A DNA stretch of 64,000 nucleotides. Source: an uncultured Chlamydiae bacterium. GTDB lineage: Bacteria; Chlamydiota; Chlamydiia; Chlamydiales; SM23-39. Within the stretch, counting starts at the first letter, position 1. Each line of letters opens with the position of its first letter. The DNA is taken from contig CAVSSM010000002.1 of the NCBI GenBank assembly GCA_963730605.1, positions 64,001 through 128,000 on the forward strand, written 5' to 3'. The notes under the pieces were generated by a model. It searched no databases. It was not told the origin of the DNA and saw nothing but the letters and a program-made list of their open reading frames with translations. The translations under genes were made by a program, and so were the position numbers. Below are positions 25,851-48,007 of the stretch, in pieces.

Positions 25851-27567
25851 ATGACAAGCACTAAGTACCAAGTTCTCGCTAGGCGCTACCGGCCAAAAGC
25901 CTTTTCCGAAGTGGTCGGCCAGGAGCCGGTCGTTACGACCTTGAAAAACGCCCTTCGTTTTGATAAGGCAGCTCATGCCTACCTCTTCTGCGGATCGCGC
26001 GGCGTCGGCAAAACCACACTCGCCCGCCTCTTTGCTAAAGCCCTGAATTGCAACAGCTCAGCCGAGCGATTCGAGCCTTGCAACCAGTGCTCCTCATGCC
26101 TGGAGATCATCGCTGGCCAGTCGCTCGACGTCATCGAAATCGACGGCGCATCCAACCGCGGGATCGACGATATCCGCCAGATCAATGAGACGATCGGCTA
26201 CGCCCCGCGCGGGCAAATACAAAATCTACATCATCGACGAAGTGCACATGCTCACCAAGGAGGCGTTCAATGCCCTCCTCAAAACGCTGGAAGAGCCGCC
26301 GGAAAAGGCCAAATTTTTCTTCGCGACGACAGAACCCCATAAAGTCCTCCCCACCATCATAAGCCGCTGCCAACGCTTCGATCTCGGACGGATCCAACTT
26401 TCGCAAATCATAGGAAAACTCGAAGAGATCGCGGCCGACCTCGGGCGCGCGGCCGAACCTGAAGCGCTCCATTTGATCGCAGCTTTTTCCGACGGGTCTC
26501 TCCGCGATGCCGAATCGCTTTTTGATCAAATCCTTTGTTTTGCAGAAAATGCAGTGACAGCGGCCATTGTGAGGACCTCTTTGGGCTTGATTCCTCAGGA
26601 ACATTTCTTCGCTCTTGATCAAGCCTTCTCTGAAGCTAGGGCCGCATTTGCTTTCGAACTCGTCGAATTGCTCTTTGCCTCGGGAAAGGATCTACACCAC
26701 TTCTACGAGCAGCTCATGGAACACGTCCGCAATCTTGCGAGCGCCCGCCTAGTTGGGGAATCTGGGCTCTCCCTCCCTCCAGATCTAAAAGCGAAAACCC
26801 TCCAATCCGCCCGCCTCTATGCTCCTTCCCAATGCCTTTATCTGCTCGAATACCTCTTGCGTCAAGAGAACCACTTGCAGAAAAGCGCTTGCCAAAGGGT
26901 CGCCCTCGAGTCGATCCTCCTGCATTACATCCAAAGCAAGAACCGGATCCCCATAGAGGTCCTGGTCCGACGCCTGACGGAGATGGAAGAAACCCTCAAA
27001 TTGCGAGAACTATCTATACCGGGAGTGATTGAAAAAACGGGAATTGAGCACTGCGGACACTCAAAAACAGTCCGGGGGACTGTTTTTGAGCGAAGCAGCC
27101 CCCCAGAGCTTGAAATCGCAAAACCAGTTCCTGAACCAACGGTTAAGCTCTCACCCCTCCCGCCGCCCAAAATCGAAAGTCCGACTCCATTGCCTGAAAT
27201 CGCAAAACTGATTCCTCAACCAACGCTTAAGACCTCATCTCTCTTACCGCCTAACCTCGAGAATCCGACTTCTGAACCGGAGCCTCAACCGCGGCCTCTT
27301 TCCTTAAAGCCCACGCCATTCAATCCTTTTAAAAAAGCCGAAAAGGCGACAAAACCAGAAGCCGCGAAACCGGAGCCGACGCCCCCCCTAAAAAATGCTG
27401 CATCCCCTTCGGTGCAAGCGAAACCGGATCCTTACCCCAAAAATGGTGCATTTTTGGGGACCCTGGAGCGGGCGTTAGGGCCGATTTCTCTTGATAGCCA
27501 ATCCCGCTACGATACCCTAATGCGGTTCGCTACGGTAGAATTAGAAGGCACACTAAAATTAACGTAA
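25851..27567 (+). CDS. dnaX: DNA polymerase III gamma/tau, with one frameshift near 26205 (likely sequence error)
   Basis: [23 protein letters not shown] in the first frame; [23 protein letters not shown] in the second; extended Pro-rich C-terminus. Confidence 0.93.
27015..27098 (+). mobile_element. In-frame MITE remnant in dnaX (TATACCGGGAG end plus hairpin module)
   Basis: Same end sequence as the 47384 element; 14-bp perfect stem ctcaaaaacagtcc-ggg-ggactgtttttgag inside ctgcggacac..gaagcag. Confidence 0.75.
27112..27279 (+). repeat. Diverged 84-bp (28-aa) tandem duplication in the dnaX linker
   Basis: [25 protein letters not shown] versus [25 protein letters not shown]. Confidence 0.85.
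27432..27465 (-). repeat. Third mini-hairpin repeat, opposite orientation, in dnaX
   Basis: ccccaaaaatg-gtg-catttttgggg 11-bp stem followed by accc; resembles the 480 and 16871 copies. Confidence 0.65.
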
Positions 27568-37812: not shown

Positions 37813-37887
37813 GGCGATCGTAGCTCAGTTGGTTAGAGCGTTGGATTGTGGATCCAAATGTCGCGGGTTCAAATCCCGTCGATCGCC
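37813..37887 (+). tRNA. tRNA-His(GTG)
   Basis: Encoded G-1, stem GCGATCG/CGATCGC, anticodon loop TTGTGGA, T-loop TTCAAAT; promoter ttgacg-18-tagaat upstream. Confidence 0.97.
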
Positions 37888-38149
37888 CATCCTTCCTATA
37901 AGGCTTGAGATAGCGATGCGACGGCTTCTTGGAATTCTTTGGACTCCAGATTTGCGATAGTCGCAATTGCGGCGATGGCTTTCATCGGTTCTACAATGAC
38001 TCCCCCTCAAACCCCAACGCCGAACCCAAACCCGAACCAGGGGCCGATCCCCTCGCCACTTGACCCTTCGACCCGTCAGATCACAGTGGACCCAAAATCA
38101 ACCCCGGATCTAAACATTTCAAATTGGACATCTTTATGAACCTAGGAGA

Positions 38150-38314
38150 TATACCGCGCCCGCTCATCTTGAGTGAATTTTGTTGAGCATCTTTTTTGCT
38201 CCAGCGCATTGCTCGATCTCGTTAACATTGTGCAAGTTGGACTCGATCTCCGCAATGCTACTGGAGCCAAAAATCTGCTGTCAAAATTCACACAACCTAA
38301 GCGGGCGCGGTATA
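38150..38314. mobile_element. MITE family B (TA-TACCG ends), 161 bp plus TA duplication
   Basis: tataccgcgcccgct/agcgggcgcggtata; near-identical inverted copy at 44540-44704. Confidence 0.93.
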
Positions 38315-38968
38315 ACTTGCAAAATCTAGATGAAATTCCTGACGATGATCGCAAATGCTATGCAGCCTACGAGTCCTGCAGTTCAGGTGGTCTCTGTGGG
38401 GGAGGGGGGATATGGGTGTATAGAAAGAAAATTAAACAATATGTACAAAGTCGAGAAAACACGAAAGCCAACCTTTCCAAATTCGGAGGAAGGCGCGAGG
38501 AGAAAATCGACTGTGATGACGCGGTCACGCACCATACTCGCATAAAAAAAGGCCACGGGCCGGAACTCATGGCGTTCGCATAGGGTCACTATGCGGGATT
38601 AACGAAACTCATTCTACAATGCTATAAGAATTATTGACAAGAGCCTTATTTTTGCCGGCGACCGGACTAAGGAATTCCCGCCGGCTCGGAACAGGTTCCT
38701 GGGTTCGAGTCCTAAAATAGATGAAAATCTTCACCAAAACCCCTATTACCCATTACCCGCTCTTCAAAAACTTGGAGCCCCCCTTCCACAAACTCCCTCT
38801 ATACACAAACAACTGGAAAAGTGGTATATTCCTGACTTTCCTATTTTTTAGGTGCGCTGCCTACAAAATTGCGAAATGCCACAACACCAACTCGGGAATC
38901 CCTATGCAAACAGGCTTTATGCTAAGACCTTATTTACCTGACATTGACTTTGAACGATATTAATCCGC

Positions 38969-40006
38969 ATGACCCTCTTCCAATCCATCATCCTAGGGAT
39001 CGTTCAAGGGCTCACCGAATTTTTTCCGGTCAGCTCTTCCGCCCATTTGGGGCTGGCCAAATGGCTTTTGGGGCTGCAGGATGGCGGGCATCTCCTCTAC
39101 TTCGATCTTGTTTGCCATAGTGGAACGCTCCTCGCGCTGATCCTCTTTTTGCGCAGAGACATCGCCGCAACGTTTAAGAACCCTAAAGAGCTTTTCCTTA
39201 TGGCTCTTGCCCTATGCCCTCTTGTCCCTGCTTATTTTCTCATGGAGCCTCTTCGGATCGCGGCCTCCGATCCCGCCTATCTGGGGTTTTTCTTGATGTT
39301 CACTGCACTCCTTCTTTTTTTCGCCTCCATAAAAAAAAGCGAAAATCGACACAAAGTTCGCACCAGTTCATTGCCTAAAGTGGCCTCTTTCACAATTTTC
39401 ACACAGGATTCGGGCGAGCGAGGCAAAGCCGGATTGAAGCGCAGCGTTCCACATGACGAAGCCATAGCCGAAGGCGCTATGGCTGAGGAAGAGGATCGAT
39501 CTGGCTGCGGAATCGAGAAAAAGGTTCGAGGAACCTTTTTCTCGCGGAGCAGATTCGCGAAGCGAATCGGCCCGAAGGGAGCCGCAGCCGGCCGAAACCC
39601 TGTGAAAATTGTGAAAGAGGCCACTAAAGTCAAAGATGTGCTATGTATAGGGTTTATGCAAACGCTGGCCCTTCTTCCCGGAATCTCGCGCAGCGGGTCG
39701 ACGATCGCGACGGGGCGCCTTTTAGGCTGGGATTGGATCGCCGCAGCGCGCTTTTCCTTTCTCCTTGCTACGCCTGCGATCCTAGGGGGGCTGGCTCTAG
39801 AGACCCTGAAACTCCTCCGCGAGCCATCTGCTCACGTCACAGAAGTCTCGGCCTCTTGCTATGCAGCCGGCTTCATCGCATCTTTTGCCATGGGGGTGAC
39901 CTGTGTCCGTTTTATGTTCAAAATCTATGAACTTGGGATCGTGCGCCCGTTTGCGTGGTATTGCCTTGCCGCCGGCCTCTTAGCCTTATGGACGTTCCAT
40001 GCTTAA
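38969..40006 (+). CDS. uppP: Undecaprenyl-diphosphatase with an 83-aa in-frame insertion
   Basis: GIVQGLTEFFPVSSSAH, LPGISRSGSTI, ARFSFLL; 262 aa after removing the insert. Confidence 0.95.
   Translation: MTLFQSIILGIVQGLTEFFPVSSSAHLGLAKWLLGLQDGGHLLYFDLVCHSGTLLALILFLRRDIAATFKNPKELFLMALALCPLVPAYFLMEPLRIAASDPAYLGFFLMFTALLLFFASIKKSENRHKVRTSSLPKVASFTIFTQDSGERGKAGLKRSVPHDEAIAEGAMAEEEDRSGCGIEKKVRGTFFSRSRFAKRIGPKGAAAGRNPVKIVKEATKVKDVLCIGFMQTLALLPGISRSGSTIATGRLLGWDWIAAARFSFLLATPAILGGLALETLKLLREPSAHVTEVSASCYAAGFIASFAMGVTCVRFMFKIYELGIVRPFAWYCLAAGLLALWTFHA
39376..39628. mobile_element. MITE family E inside uppP (245 bp plus 4-bp TAAA direct repeat)
   Basis: Perfect 24-bp TIR gtggcctctttcacaattttcaca at 39380-39403 and 39601-39624; TAAA on both sides. 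Confidence 0.95.
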
Positions 40007-42398
40007 ACTAAAGAAAAAGGGTAAAAAAGTTCCCCTAAATTCCGATGCCCAGGGACTCATCTATCTCGCAGCCGGCTTCTTGAGTCTTCTCTCCCTTTAT
40101 AGTTTCACCTATCTGGATCCGGGGAAAAATTGGCTGGGGCATGTCGGCTACATCGCTGCTTTGGGTGCCGTTACCCTTTTCGGGCTCGGCTCCTATTTGA
40201 TCCCCTGCTACCTCACCTGGCTTGGGATCTGCTATTTGAGCAGGCAAAAATTGAGCCATCTCTTGTACGACCATCTCTACTTCTTCATCCTCTTGGGTTC
40301 GGCTTGCTCGCTTTTAACCGCCGCAGCCGATCGCTTTCCTGAATCGGCGGCTTCCTGGGAAGAAAAAGTCGTCTCTGAAACTGTGACGATTGCCGCTCCT
40401 TATCCCCACACGCTCATCCGTCGCAATCTCGGCGGCGTCCCGTTTTATTTTCTGTATGCCGATCTGCCGGGCGTAAATTTACAGCGGATCTTAAGTCCCA
40501 TGGGGTGCTTCCTGATTTTTTCTTGCCTTGGGATCGTCTCCTTCTTTCTTCTGACTCGGTTAAGTTTTGGAAAGGGCGCTTTACGGACCTGGAAAGCAGG
40601 ATGCAATGCCGCTCTTCTCTTAAAAGAGCTCATCCGGGTTTTTTGGAATCTCGCAGCAAAAAAAGAGCCCGTAACTTCCCCCCTCTCCAAAAAAACAGGG
40701 TATTCGGGGCTGCCCATGAGCGGCTTGAAAATCAATTTGTCAGAGGAAAAAAAGGCCCAAAAATCAGAAGACCCGAAAAAAATGATTGCCAAGATCTTGA
40801 AACCGGCGCCTATTCCATCTCCCGAAGTGAAAGAGGCTCAAGGCACACTTCCTCAGCTGCCGAAAAAAGACCCCATACCGGTGCCGTCAAAGAGTTTGAT
40901 CGTCCACGCCGACAGCTCTTTCAAACTCCCCACTCCAAACCTCCTTTCCAATCCGGTGAGCAAGATCGATCCGCCCACTTTGAAAAAAGACCTCACGCGT
41001 CAAGCCGCGGTCCTCGAAGAGACGCTAAAGAGTTTTGGGATCGAGACAAAAGTGGGAGAAATCAACAGCGGCCCGACGATCACCTCGTTCGAAGTGCACC
41101 CTTCTATCGGAGTGAAGGTTCAAAAGATCAAAACGCTCGAAAATGATATCGCGCTCAACATGCAGGCCAAATCGATCCGGATCGTCGCCCCGATTCCGGG
41201 CAAAGCCGCTGTCGGCATCGAAGTGCCGGCCATCCATCCCCAAGAGGTGAATTTCAAGGAGATGCTCATCCACTATCAGCAAAAGTCGAAGCGGCTGCAC
41301 ATCCCCATCCTCCTTGGCAAAGCGGTCAACGGCGATTGGGTCTTCTCCGACCTCACCCGTATGCCCCACCTGCTCATCGCCGGGGCGACAGGTTCAGGAA
41401 AATCGGTCTGCATCAATACGATCGTCATCTCGATCCTGATGAACGCGCGTCCAGAAGAAGTAAAGCTTCTCATGGTCGACCCGAAGAAAGTGGAGCTGAC
41501 CCAGTATTCGGAGCTCCCCCACATGATCGCCCCTGTCATCACCGAACCGCATGGCGCTTACGCGGCCTTGCAGTGGCTCGTCAAGGAAATGCAGGTCCGG
41601 TATGAAATTTTAAAACAGCTCGGCCTTCGCAACATCGGGGCTTTCAACAGCCGAAAAGTCGATAAAGATCTTGAAGCTTCTTTGAACATCCCGATCCCGC
41701 CCCAGATGCCTTTCATCATCGCGATCGTTGATGAGTTTGCCGATTTGATGATGGTCTCTAGTGCCGATATCGAAACGCCGATCGCACGGATCGCCCAGAT
41801 GGCCCGCGCTGTCGGCATCCACCTCATCCTTGCCACCCAAAGGCCGTCCCGCGAAGTGATTACCGGCATCATTAAGGCGAACATCCCAACGCGCATTTCC
41901 TTCAAGGTCGCAAGCCGCGTCAACTCGCAGATCATCCTCGACGACATCGGGGCCGAGAGCCTCCTCGGCAATGGAGACCTCTTGTTCCTTCCGCCCGGCT
42001 CTTCGCAGCTCATGCGCGCTCAAGGAGCTTATTTGAGCGATGAAGATATCAGCCAGGTCATCAAATTCCTCTCTTCGCAAGGCCCCCCTCAATATCTCCT
42101 CCCCTCGTTCGACTCATTCCGCTCGTTTGACGTCGGTGCGGATGACGACGACGACAAGCCAAAAGGGAAGGACCCTCTTTATGACCAAGCATTGACTATT
42201 GTCTTAGGCTCGAAGAGCGCATCGACGACCTTCCTGCAGAGAAAATTGAAGATCGGTTATGCCCGGGCTGCCTCGCTGATGGACGAGCTCGAAGAGAATG
42301 GGATTATCGGGCCTCAAGAGGGGGCGCGCCCAAGACGGGTGATCGCCTCCTCGCAGGCTTCTTTTGCAGAGGAAGAAGAAGATGTCGAAATTCCTTAA
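39999..42398 (+). CDS. ftsK: DNA translocase FtsK
   Basis: 4TM N-terminus, PHLLIAGATGSGKS, VDEFADLM, LATQRPS, gamma domain LQRKLKIGYARAA. Confidence 0.97.
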   Translation: MLKLKKKGKKVPLNSDAQGLIYLAAGFLSLLSLYSFTYLDPGKNWLGHVGYIAALGAVTLFGLGSYLIPCYLTWLGICYLSRQKLSHLLYDHLYFFILLGSACSLLTAAADRFPESAASWEEKVVSETVTIAAPYPHTLIRRNLGGVPFYFLYADLPGVNLQRILSPMGCFLIFSCLGIVSFFLLTRLSFGKGALRTWKAGCNAALLLKELIRVFWNLAAKKEPVTSPLSKKTGYSGLPMSGLKINLSEEKKAQKSEDPKKMIAKILKPAPIPSPEVKEAQGTLPQLPKKDPIPVPSKSLIVHADSSFKLPTPNLLSNPVSKIDPPTLKKDLTRQAAVLEETLKSFGIETKVGEINSGPTITSFEVHPSIGVKVQKIKTLENDIALNMQAKSIRIVAPIPGKAAVGIEVPAIHPQEVNFKEMLIHYQQKSKRLHIPILLGKAVNGDWVFSDLTRMPHLLIAGATGSGKSVCINTIVISILMNARPEEVKLLMVDPKKVELTQYSELPHMIAPVITEPHGAYAALQWLVKEMQVRYEILKQLGLRNIGAFNSRKVDKDLEASLNIPIPPQMPFIIAIVDEFADLMMVSSADIETPIARIAQMARAVGIHLILATQRPSREVITGIIKANIPTRISFKVASRVNSQIILDDIGAESLLGNGDLLFLPPGSSQLMRAQGAYLSDEDISQVIKFLSSQGPPQYLLPSFDSFRSFDVGADDDDDKPKGKDPLYDQALTIVLGSKSASTTFLQRKLKIGYARAASLMDELEENGIIGPQEGARPRRVIASSQASFAEEEEDVEIP

Positions 42399-45429: not shown

Positions 45430-45792
45430 ATGGCATCCGAAGAAATTTTGATGGAGATCGATGAGACGTTGGATCGTTTGATCCAGAATGCTGAAGCGAT
45501 CGCCGGCGTCGAAATTGCAGAACTCTCCGTCATCGAGCTCGAGGCGTTTCAGAAGACGCAAGAGAGCCTCATCCAGCATTTGCTCTACACAGATGAGCGG
45601 CTGGAATCGCAGAGACAAGGTCTTTCCAAGGTAGACAAACGATCGGCGAGTTATAAACTCATAGAAAAACGGGCCAAGTTTGAAAAACTAAAATCAACCT
45701 ATCATAAAAATATCTCAGATACGATAGAAAAAAAGCTGCCGATCCTGTCAAAACGTCGGCGCAAGCGCTTCTTGGTAAACTTCAGAACTTAG
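45430..45792 (+). CDS. Hypothetical coiled-coil protein
   Basis: RBS aagga; 120-aa ORF. Confidence 0.7.
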   Translation: MASEEILMEIDETLDRLIQNAEAIAGVEIAELSVIELEAFQKTQESLIQHLLYTDERLESQRQGLSKVDKRSASYKLIEKRAKFEKLKSTYHKNISDTIEKKLPILSKRRRKRFLVNFRT

Positions 45793-48007
45793 CAAGCGAC
45801 CGGAGAGCCTCTTCCAAGTCTTTGACTTTCGGCAGGACTTCTTCTTCCAGATCTTTGCAATAGGGAACGGGACAATCTTTTCCGGCGATGCGGCGCACGG
45901 GAGCGTCGAGGAAGAAAAACGCCTCTTCCGCCACGCGGGCGGCAAGCTCAGCGCCGAATCCGCAGTTGCGGGGCGCTTCATGGACAACGAGGAACTTGCC
46001 CGTTTTCTTGATGGAAGTTAAGACGGAACCAAAATCGAGCGGCACGAGGGTGCGAAGGTCGATCACTTCCACCGAGATCCCCTCTTTGGAAAGAGTGTCT
46101 GCCGCCTCGATCGCCATCAGGATCCCCATGCCCCAGGCGGCGACCGTGACATCGGCGCCGCTTTTCAGAATGGCAGCCTGGCCGAAAGGAAGAAGATCAT
46201 CGGGTCCAGGCTCGGGACGCGCGCAAAAGAGGCGCTGGCGGTAAAGGGCCTTATGTTCGAGGAAAATCACCGGATTTGGATCGCGGATCGCCGTCTTCAA
46301 AAGACGCTTCGCATCAGCCGCGTTGCTGGGGATCGCCACTTTCAGTCCCGGACAATGGGAGAGAAACGCTTCGGTGCTCTGGGAATGGTAAGGTCCGCCC
46401 TGGATGTAGCCGCCATAAGGCATCCGGATCACGACCGGGCAATTCCATACCCCATTGGAGCGGTAATACATGCTCGAGAGTTCATTGAAGAGCTGGTTCA
46501 TCCCTGTCCAGGCATAGTCGGCAAATTGGATCTCCGCAACAGGCTTATGAAAGCCGTCGAATGAAAGCCCGGTCGCAAGAGCGACGATCGTCGATTCGGC
46601 AAGCGGAGTGTTGAAACACCTATTTTCAGTAAAACGGTCGGTCAATGTGCGGGTGATGCCGAATACGCCCCCTTTGCCTCTTGCGACATCTTGGCCAAAG
46701 ACAACGACCCCCGGGTCTCGCTCCATTTCTTCGACGAGAGCGTGATTGAGCGCATCCATCAAGACTATGGCTTCCTTATCGGTAGGCTCGGCGGCTCCCT
46801 CGGAAGGTTGTAGAGCCGGCTCGTAAGGCTTGAACACTTTATCCGCAGCTGAGGCGCGGGAGGGAAAGGGAAGCCGATCTGCGGCTTGAGATGCCTCTTC
46901 TACGCGAACGAAATGGCGGCGGCGCAAAGCTTCTAGCTCTTCTTCAGTAAGATAGTTTTGGTCGAGAAGCCACTTTTCGAAACGGGGGATGGGATCGCGA
47001 AGCTTGTCGGAAGAGCGGAACGTTTCACACTGGTATTTTTTCGGGTCGTCGCTGCTGCTGTGAGGGCTGAGGCGGGGCACTTTTGCAATCACAAGACTCG
47101 GTCCCCCGCCTTGGCGGGCCCGAGCTACCGCCTTTTGGAGCGCATCAGCCGTTTCGATATAGTCGCAGCCGTCGATCTCAAAAACAGAGAGCCCATCGTA
47201 TCCGCGGGCCATTTTGGCGATCGTTCCTCCTGCCGTCTGTTCAGCGACCGGCACCGAAATTGCCCAGCCGTTGTCTTGGATCACAATGACAAGCGGCAAC
47301 TTGTGAAGGCAGGCGAAATTGAGCGTCTCGTGAAAATCGCCCTGAGAGGTCGCACCATCCCCTGCTGATACGTAAACCACTTCTATACCGCGTTCCGTCA
47401 GGTTTTGTGAATTTGGACTGGCTGCGCCTTTGCCTAATCGATTCTGTTTTTCGCCCTTCTCTTCTTGAGCATGTTGCTCAAAATGCGAATCGATTATGCT
47501 TTGGCTCGCAGAGTCCAAATTTACAAAACCTTCCTGCTCCCGGTATATTTTTTCACGCAAAACGGCCGATTTGGCAGTGCCCGCAGCTTGGAGGAACTGC
47601 GAACCTACGACGCTCGACTGACAAGGGATTCTCAAATCTGCTTGAGAAAAATGCTCCGGCATCATCCGCCCGCCCGAATGATTCTCGATATCGCGGGCTA
47701 AAAATGCAGCGAGAATATCGACAGGAGAACATCCAAGGCCGATGGCGAAAGCCCTGTCGCGGTAATAGGGAAATCCCCAGTCTACGCCTGGAGTTAAGGA
47801 AAGTGCTGAAACCGCCCCGATCAGCTCATGGCCGGAGACGGAGAGCTGAAAGGTCGCGCCCTTGTTCTGCCGAACAAGCTTTGCCATCTTGTCGTCCATG
47901 AACCGGGTCAAATGGAGAACTTCAAGGACGCGGAGAACCCGCTCCCGCGAGGTTAGGCTCCCTTTAATTAAATCTTCCAGCAATATGTCGTTTCGGTATA
48001 CATTCAT
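45782..48007 (-). CDS. Fused alpha/beta E1 of (branched-chain) 2-oxoacid dehydrogenase with a 54-aa in-frame insertion
   Basis: GHE, PYYRD, GDGATSQG..DNGWAIS (ThDP motif), HSSSDD, NTPLAES, EIQFADY, GPYHSQ. Confidence 0.95.
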   Translation of the reverse strand: MNVYRNDILLEDLIKGSLTSRERVLRVLEVLHLTRFMDDKMAKLVRQNKGATFQLSVSGHELIGAVSALSLTPGVDWGFPYYRDRAFAIGLGCSPVDILAAFLARDIENHSGGRMMPEHFSQADLRIPCQSSVVGSQFLQAAGTAKSAVLREKIYREQEGFVNLDSASQSIIDSHFEQHAQEEKGEKQNRLGKGAASPNSQNLTERGIEVVYVSAGDGATSQGDFHETLNFACLHKLPLVIVIQDNGWAISVPVAEQTAGGTIAKMARGYDGLSVFEIDGCDYIETADALQKAVARARQGGGPSLVIAKVPRLSPHSSSDDPKKYQCETFRSSDKLRDPIPRFEKWLLDQNYLTEEELEALRRRHFVRVEEASQAADRLPFPSRASAADKVFKPYEPALQPSEGAAEPTDKEAIVLMDALNHALVEEMERDPGVVVFGQDVARGKGGVFGITRTLTDRFTENRCFNTPLAESTIVALATGLSFDGFHKPVAEIQFADYAWTGMNQLFNELSSMYYRSNGVWNCPVVIRMPYGGYIQGGPYHSQSTEAFLSHCPGLKVAIPSNAADAKRLLKTAIRDPNPVIFLEHKALYRQRLFCARPEPGPDDLLPFGQAAILKSGADVTVAAWGMGILMAIEAADTLSKEGISVEVIDLRTLVPLDFGSVLTSIKKTGKFLVVHEAPRNCGFGAELAARVAEEAFFFLDAPVRRIAGKDCPVPYCKDLEEEVLPKVKDLEEALRSLAKF
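47384..47547. mobile_element. MITE (TA-TACCG ends) inside the E1 gene, 160 bp plus TA
   Basis: Imperfect TIR tataccg..aggttttgt(g/a)aatttggact; inner arms aatcgattc/gaatcgatt and ttgagca/tgctcaa. Confidence 0.92.

Follow-up and report, generated by a model that had tools for sequence, protein, structure and literature searches.

An in-frame hairpin element and its allelic series in the uppP gene of an uncultured chlamydial bacterium

What becomes of a mobile element that comes to lie, in frame, within a conserved membrane enzyme, and how long can it persist there? This question is raised by the cell-wall recycling gene uppP (bacA) in the window analysed here, a stretch of 64,000 nucleotides from an uncultured Chlamydiae bacterium (G000:C2:64001-128000; the G000 genome comprises 2.2 Mb in 12 contigs and is 83% complete). 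An earlier note on this DNA had described a 249-nt block in uppP, and its basic description is borne out by our analysis. The block consists of 83 sense codons without a stop in the frame of the gene, and its removal yields the claimed UppP of 262 aa. It represents a non-autonomous element with terminal inverted repeats (TIRs) that lies in a hydrophilic loop ahead of the PGISRSG motif, and all three inner hairpins named in the note are present. The features of the locus are as follows.

38969..40006, + strand: uppP/bacA, 345 aa with the insert (Pfam, ORF list, residue matches, fold match)
39374..39381, + strand: left copy of the 8-bp target duplication, the original target, encoding Pro-Lys-Val as in the empty alleles
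39382..39622, + strand: 241-bp non-autonomous hairpin element with GGCC ends, from comparison of copies; together with one duplication copy it makes up the 83 codons
39382..39403, + strand: left 22-bp arm
39460..39484, + strand: inner hairpin of the 169-bp short form, co-varying among copies
39506..39577, + strand: extra module of 72 nt (24 codons), missing from the short form
39554..39556, + strand: TTC codon, which is TGA in the same frame in 14 of 14 other module copies
39601..39622, + strand: right 22-bp arm
39623..39630, + strand: right duplication copy; it departs from the target at its first base, which pairs with the final base of the left copy
39999..42398, + strand: ftsK, start codon overlapping the end of uppP (ORF list, Pfam)

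The element and its setting

The 345-aa reading frame is a BacA/UppP according to Pfam PF02673 (E 1e-56, 192.6 bits against a cut-off of 33.4), with a match in two stretches. The NCBIfam equivalog cut-offs are missed (best model 150.5 vs. 284; TIGR00753 135.3 vs. 217.5), and these scores refer to the insert-bearing form, in which the match is split by the insert. A protein search with UppP residues 95-260 retrieved 63 proteins, named as Chlamydiales. Upstream of the gene, tRNA-His is located at a distance of 1.08 kb, compared with about 20-90 nt in seven of the 11 relatives checked; the gap (37814-38968) harbors an orphan ORF of 136 aa together with a tRNA-like remnant (near 38650-38715) and is possibly a small island.

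The boundaries of the element follow from a comparison of its copies. The partition proposed earlier, a 245-bp element with 24-bp TIRs and a 4-bp TAAA duplication, is ruled out by the duplication length elsewhere: 8 bp fits best in nine of ten two-ended copies, with ties assigned to the longer length, and is perfect in the eleventh. Because this length fits the other copies best, the element is delimited to 241 bp with 22-bp arms, and judged by these copies the outer three pairs of the supposed TIRs are part of the target duplication. The two duplication copies at uppP are alike at seven of eight positions, and a perfect self-complement of 25 nt extends across the insert ends. The fold predicted for the block is a single long stem that includes the inner hairpins (-137.6 kcal/mol, z = -11.2; none of 200 shuffles as good). 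Short, transposase-free and equipped with terminal inverted repeats, a target duplication, empty sites and dispersed copies, it shows the hallmarks of a MITE. The encoded peptide is hydrophilic (GRAVY -0.61) and contains no hydrophobic 19-residue window.

The note had also asked whether reads contain the insert. This was substantiated for the left junction, which is crossed by two contigs with no mismatches; the right junction and the TTC codon lie in none of the listed contigs. No empty-site joint was seen among the listed contigs of the four runs (contigs only), which are possibly not independent of the assembly.

Allelic series and age of the insertion

At the insertion site, the UppP proteins of related bacteria can be arranged in a series. 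P0005 and P0006 represent the empty state (261/262 aa), P0004 carries four additional residues, P0003 carries 30, P0001 and P0064 carry 59, and the window carries 83. The 59 residues correspond to the short form of the element, and in P0003 the arms are kept and the middle is lost. The loop of P0004 is the same as that of a sister species (G003; dS to G000 0.31), whose DNA retains a 12-nt scar composed of a left duplication remnant, the last five nt of the element and the right duplication. Protein databases show open alleles only (189-604 aa), and the observation that all lengths are whole codons is thus partly a matter of ascertainment.

After removal of the loop, the four filled alleles group together (87/87) and the insert-free core is only 93.3-94.5% identical to that of the window, which indicates that the insertion is older than the filled alleles. 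The clean empty alleles show 90-92% core identity. In the UppP tree, for which 14 of 17 rows were used and three were dropped by the motif cut, the scar allele branches weakly with an empty allele (80/88). The grouping of all five derived alleles in a single clade is merely not rejected by the AU test (p-AU 0.054), and a precise loss or recombination therefore has to be assumed. The insertion may also predate G003, in which case the empty alleles would have lost it precisely.

The earlier note had concluded from the perfect TIRs that the event is young, the arms being too recent to have decayed. Perfect arms and the existence of clean empty alleles at 90-92% core identity would be in accordance with such a scenario, but the insertion is common to alleles that differ by 5-7% in protein and have three lengths, the arm-encoded residues vary among the filled alleles, and the scar of the sister species as well as the co-variation of the arms between copies (see below) speak against it. 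Moreover, the arm sequence is single-copy in G000 and a mover was not found in the genomes searched. We consider a young insertion largely refuted and accord it very little probability. The derivation of the arms from the target site, an idea arising from the shared right-arm end in G003, was discarded as well: the same arms are found in copies within other genes, and the clean empty alleles lack them.

Under the preferred reading of an old insertion, a 169-bp short form would have landed between the N- and C-terminal repeats of the enzyme and added 59 codons, a step documented by the +59 alleles and the duplication, with a DDE enzyme presumably acting in trans. It would then have been remodelled in place by whole codons: an internal deletion to +30, a near-complete deletion to the +4 scar and, in the lineage of the window, the acquisition of the 72 nt of the extra module, for which gene conversion from a related, differently ended element is the probable route. 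We observe the lengths and infer the order and the mechanism.

In two further proteins, P0007 and P0008, this UppP loop is occupied by unrelated inserts (50 and 54 residues), and that of P0007 resembles another element type of G000. The distribution of these inserts suggests that the linker between the repeats represents a permissive landing loop. Conservation of the insert and of the natural loop does not differ significantly (6-7 of 58 vs. four of 15 differences, p ~0.2). Unrelated long inserts or extensions of the repeat linker were noticed in several other chlamydial lineages (P0007, P0008, L006, L008).

Element family, extra module and perfect arms

Of 103 family genomes, 36 contain element-like DNA. 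In five genomes we detected 11 distinct copies with both ends, located at unrelated sites, just one of them in G000; the others are mostly 157-169 bp long, and in one, of 240 bp, the right half is different. Removal of the 72 nt of the module from the window copy gives the 169-bp form. G000 contains about 130-140 loci with related interiors and several end types, and the arms described here occur only once among them. A metagenome scan yielded three loci that are identical to copies of genome G017 and were excluded from the independent count.

The search for the mover covered the arms and three families of insertion sequences. In G000 the arm sequence is single-copy at up to four mismatches, apart from one unpaired weak match. 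The arm pattern revealed no long two-ended element with these arms in the five genomes, no mover in 401 genomes of the order and no match in viral contigs; a genome contig collection yielded 23 loci without a mover, two-ended solely in chlamydial MAGs. An 8-bp duplication and GG ends resemble the habits of ISL3, IS1595 and IS256, which are present in 13, three and 18 of the 103 family genomes, respectively. Copies of ISL3 and IS256 that were examined have 8-9-bp duplications, and every readable end at the 51 loci examined for the three families is unrelated to the arms of the element. The sole ISL3 match in G000 (L114, G000:C2:11800-14400) has other ends and interrupts a Crp-like gene; this foreign-looking stretch may reflect contamination or recent transfer. 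At L143:2232-2470, just after an lpxD gene, a right end of the GGCC type abuts a different element that is nested there in opposite orientation.

In sequence, the extra module matches the interiors of two differently ended G000 elements at 92-96%. Read in the frame of uppP, it contains TGA in all eight other G000 copies and in all six pattern-matched copies from other genomes, and TTC in uppP alone. The replacement of TGA by TTC is a two-base change that makes a 7-bp hairpin at 39552-39568 perfect. A likely explanation would be a single template switch perfecting this small hairpin, after which only the open version would have persisted.

It is alternatively conceivable that the organism truly has TGA in the module and a UppP cut at 195 aa, and that TTC stems from an error in the assembly or coexists with TGA. 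One protein, P0002, is identical to UppP residues 1-195 and ends exactly before the TTC codon, which none of the listed contigs covers. P0002 could derive from a TGA allele, from a contig end or from a chimera, the latter two because a 53-nt exact repeat shared with the C4 copy stops at precisely this codon, and a short-read contig is expected to break or cross over there. The same assembly reads TGA in the eight other copies, and the half of UppP after the codon shows no decay, both of which argue against this alternative; we regard it as quite improbable and retain the reading of a genuine TTC codon.

For the perfection of the arms, the family as a whole suggests an explanation other than youth. 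Eleven of the 25 terminal pairs show two-sided changes across ten copies, and the covariation score was reached by none of 500 shuffles, a test that overstates significance as the copies are kin; slid controls gave a far lower score. In all 11 copies, the right duplication begins with a base that pairs with the final base of the left duplication, and this base equals its twin in only seven of them. Of eight mismatches between the duplications at positions 1-3, seven add to the stem (p = 0.003 relative to a chance of one in three; one copy, whose boundary is shifted, was excluded), and G-U wobbles are common in the arms of the other copies. At uppP the right duplication codes for Thr where the empty alleles and outgroups have Pro, and it is thus this copy that has changed in all derived alleles.

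Template switching is known to improve the match between the halves of an imperfect inverted repeat in a single event, to cause multi-base changes and to be able to maintain stems (PMC7202029, PMC8794818). Given that the arms co-vary between copies and that the stem has grown into the duplication, their perfection likely reflects repair or selection rather than youth. The same self-templated correction that is assumed for the TTC codon would probably keep the arms perfect and extend the stem into the target duplication, and selection on an RNA stem is a further possible cause. Arm perfection would then be an unsafe clock for dating MITEs.

Translation and tolerance of the insert

Of the 11 copies, five are joined to a host ORF and share a single frame; the hosts are UppP, RNase R, an acyltransferase and, where starts had to be inferred, LspA and a NUDIX protein. 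The remaining six lie between genes. The element peptide was found in the same frame in three further database proteins (P0045, a SpoU protein, P0050 and P0069). The earlier note had left undecided whether the insert is translated or removed from the RNA, and removal by splicing or ribosome bypass would restore the 262-aa enzyme. The very stable stem that joins both flanks and the frequent G-U wobbles in the arms of other copies would be compatible with such a process, but it has no need for an open frame, lengths in whole codons, one frame in many hosts or the loss of TGA, and more than half of the copies are intergenic. An Rfam scan of 38400-40200 detected no family at gathering score and no group I or II intron model; the sole hit, SSRC8_2 (18.9 bits vs. 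72), is unrelated. Removal from the RNA is hence a scenario to which we attach hardly any weight. Translation is favoured by the loss of TGA in uppP only, the one frame shared by the hosts, the absence of an intron model match and the similar in-frame inserts of other element types in G000 (see below).

Several observations on related inserts were made alongside. Copies at overlapping stop and start codons duplicate these and leave both genes whole (L078:1493-1672, L032:1916-2100), and the L032 insertion would provide the NUDIX protein with an N-terminal extension of 59 residues. The E1 dehydrogenase gene of the window (45782-48007, - strand) contains an in-frame hairpin element of 54 codons at about 47400-47560; it belongs to another, TA-ended type and is missing in five of five relatives, with G003 cleanly empty. 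A DnaX-like gene (26185-27567, + strand) carries an in-frame one-ended remnant of a TA-ended element of about 31 codons at approximately 27015-27107. Further in-frame hairpin inserts of about 66-106 codons are present in G000 genes for RecD2, a Mur ligase, a TLC transporter, a sulfatase, an E2 acyltransferase and unnamed proteins. The RecD2 insert is missing in all four relatives that have this stretch, and the Mur ligase insert in G003. The corresponding loci are:

L121:94-2790, - strand: further G000 insert
L118:120-1532, - strand: further G000 insert
L120, L122, L119, L117, L123, L115 and L116: further G000 inserts

The enzyme itself appears intact. E17, S23 and R241 of UppP match E21, S27 and R174, the three residues named as essential in E. 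coli BacA (PMC4641660). A comparison with the E. coli structures (PDB 5OON, 6CB2, 6FMT) shows the same fold; differences are a longer linker and the lack of counterparts of R189 and R261, which are missing family-wide, also in insert-free relatives. Foldseek retrieved only two strong hits for the AlphaFold model, both BacA (6fmt/5oon; E 4e-9, TM 0.84 on target). In this model 229 residues reach a pLDDT of at least 90, and residues 132-208 fall below 50, the insert having no alignment rows, a situation in which low pLDDT is expected. The linker between the repeats comprises 102 residues in the window compared with about 19 in the empty alleles. BlaM fusions place the corresponding E. coli loop (K140, E143, P144) in the cytoplasm (PMC4641660), and this loop joins the N- and C-terminal repeats (PMC5852022); the insert site is located away from the periplasm-facing pocket. 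The catalytic residues and the fold are thus predicted to be intact with the insert.

A translated insert could nevertheless weaken or kill the enzyme, the frame being kept mainly against polarity on the overlapping ftsK gene and a PAP2 phosphatase taking over. The overlap and the order uppP-ftsK in 24 of 25 relatives, the presence of one PAP2 gene in G000, the lack of a match to the UppP query in eight of the 41 genomes searched and the long branch of the window (0.056 vs. 0.005-0.03), with seven private changes including K93E and E40G at well-kept positions, would be consistent with this scenario. Against it stand the conserved catalytic residues, the restriction to two private changes in the C-terminal half and the pattern of changes outside the loop, where the G000 branch has 13 synonymous and 14 nonsynonymous changes with 24 changes unresolved (pN/pS 0.36, p = 0.008; G003 0.23). 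A Gmk protein bearing a Rickettsia palindromic element (RPE) retains activity, as summarised in PMC2229807, which likewise speaks against inactivation. A weakened enzyme is unlikely in our view. We consider it probable that the insert is real, old and in frame, and that it is most likely translated into a cytoplasmic loop of 83 residues, probably disordered, which the enzyme tolerates.

The closest analogy is provided by the RPEs, which are likewise short palindromic non-autonomous repeats of an intracellular bacterium that lie in frame in unrelated conserved proteins with a shared peptide frame (as summarised in PMC2229807 and PMC10969869). In-frame coding MITEs are thus already known from Rickettsia. 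The chlamydial element differs in its size (169/241 bp vs. 105-146 bp for RPEs) and its clear 8-bp duplication, for which the RPE entry reads "?" (PMC2229807). It also swaps interior modules with differently ended elements, resides in an integral membrane enzyme and shows a five-state allelic series. This series and the signs of self-correction are the new aspects of the current case. NCBIfam includes RPE models. At the peptide level the 83-aa insert matched no NCBIfam family (E up to 1), and the element functions like an RPE, a likeness that may be one of analogy.

The Neisseria Correia/NEMIS repeats likewise come in a short and a long version, distinguished by an internal module; the short one is open and located in ORFs, and the long one has stops (PMC2229807). 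Their duplication is TA, whereas here the long form remains in the gene because the stop of its module has been replaced. The case further resembles quasipalindrome template switching, in which one event perfects an inverted repeat, and here comparisons point to such events for arms, duplication and in-frame stop. A literature search, whose coverage mostly excluded subscription journals, found no such elements in Chlamydiae.

It is tempting to generalize, albeit tentatively and with some doubt, that chlamydial hairpin elements edit themselves within genes. Template switching in the stem would keep the arms perfect, let the stem grow into host DNA and be able to erase an imported stop, and an old insert could expand, contract and exchange modules inside a membrane enzyme that still works. 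The site records the life history of one insertion (empty, +59, +83, +30, +4) next to two independent inserts in the same loop. If this holds true, the UppP linker, in which at least three unrelated inserts have landed, would represent a natural series for the building of protein loops by selfish DNA. Whether such loops are neutral, harmful or raw material for protein parts is a question that could be tested on this series by one E. coli complementation assay.
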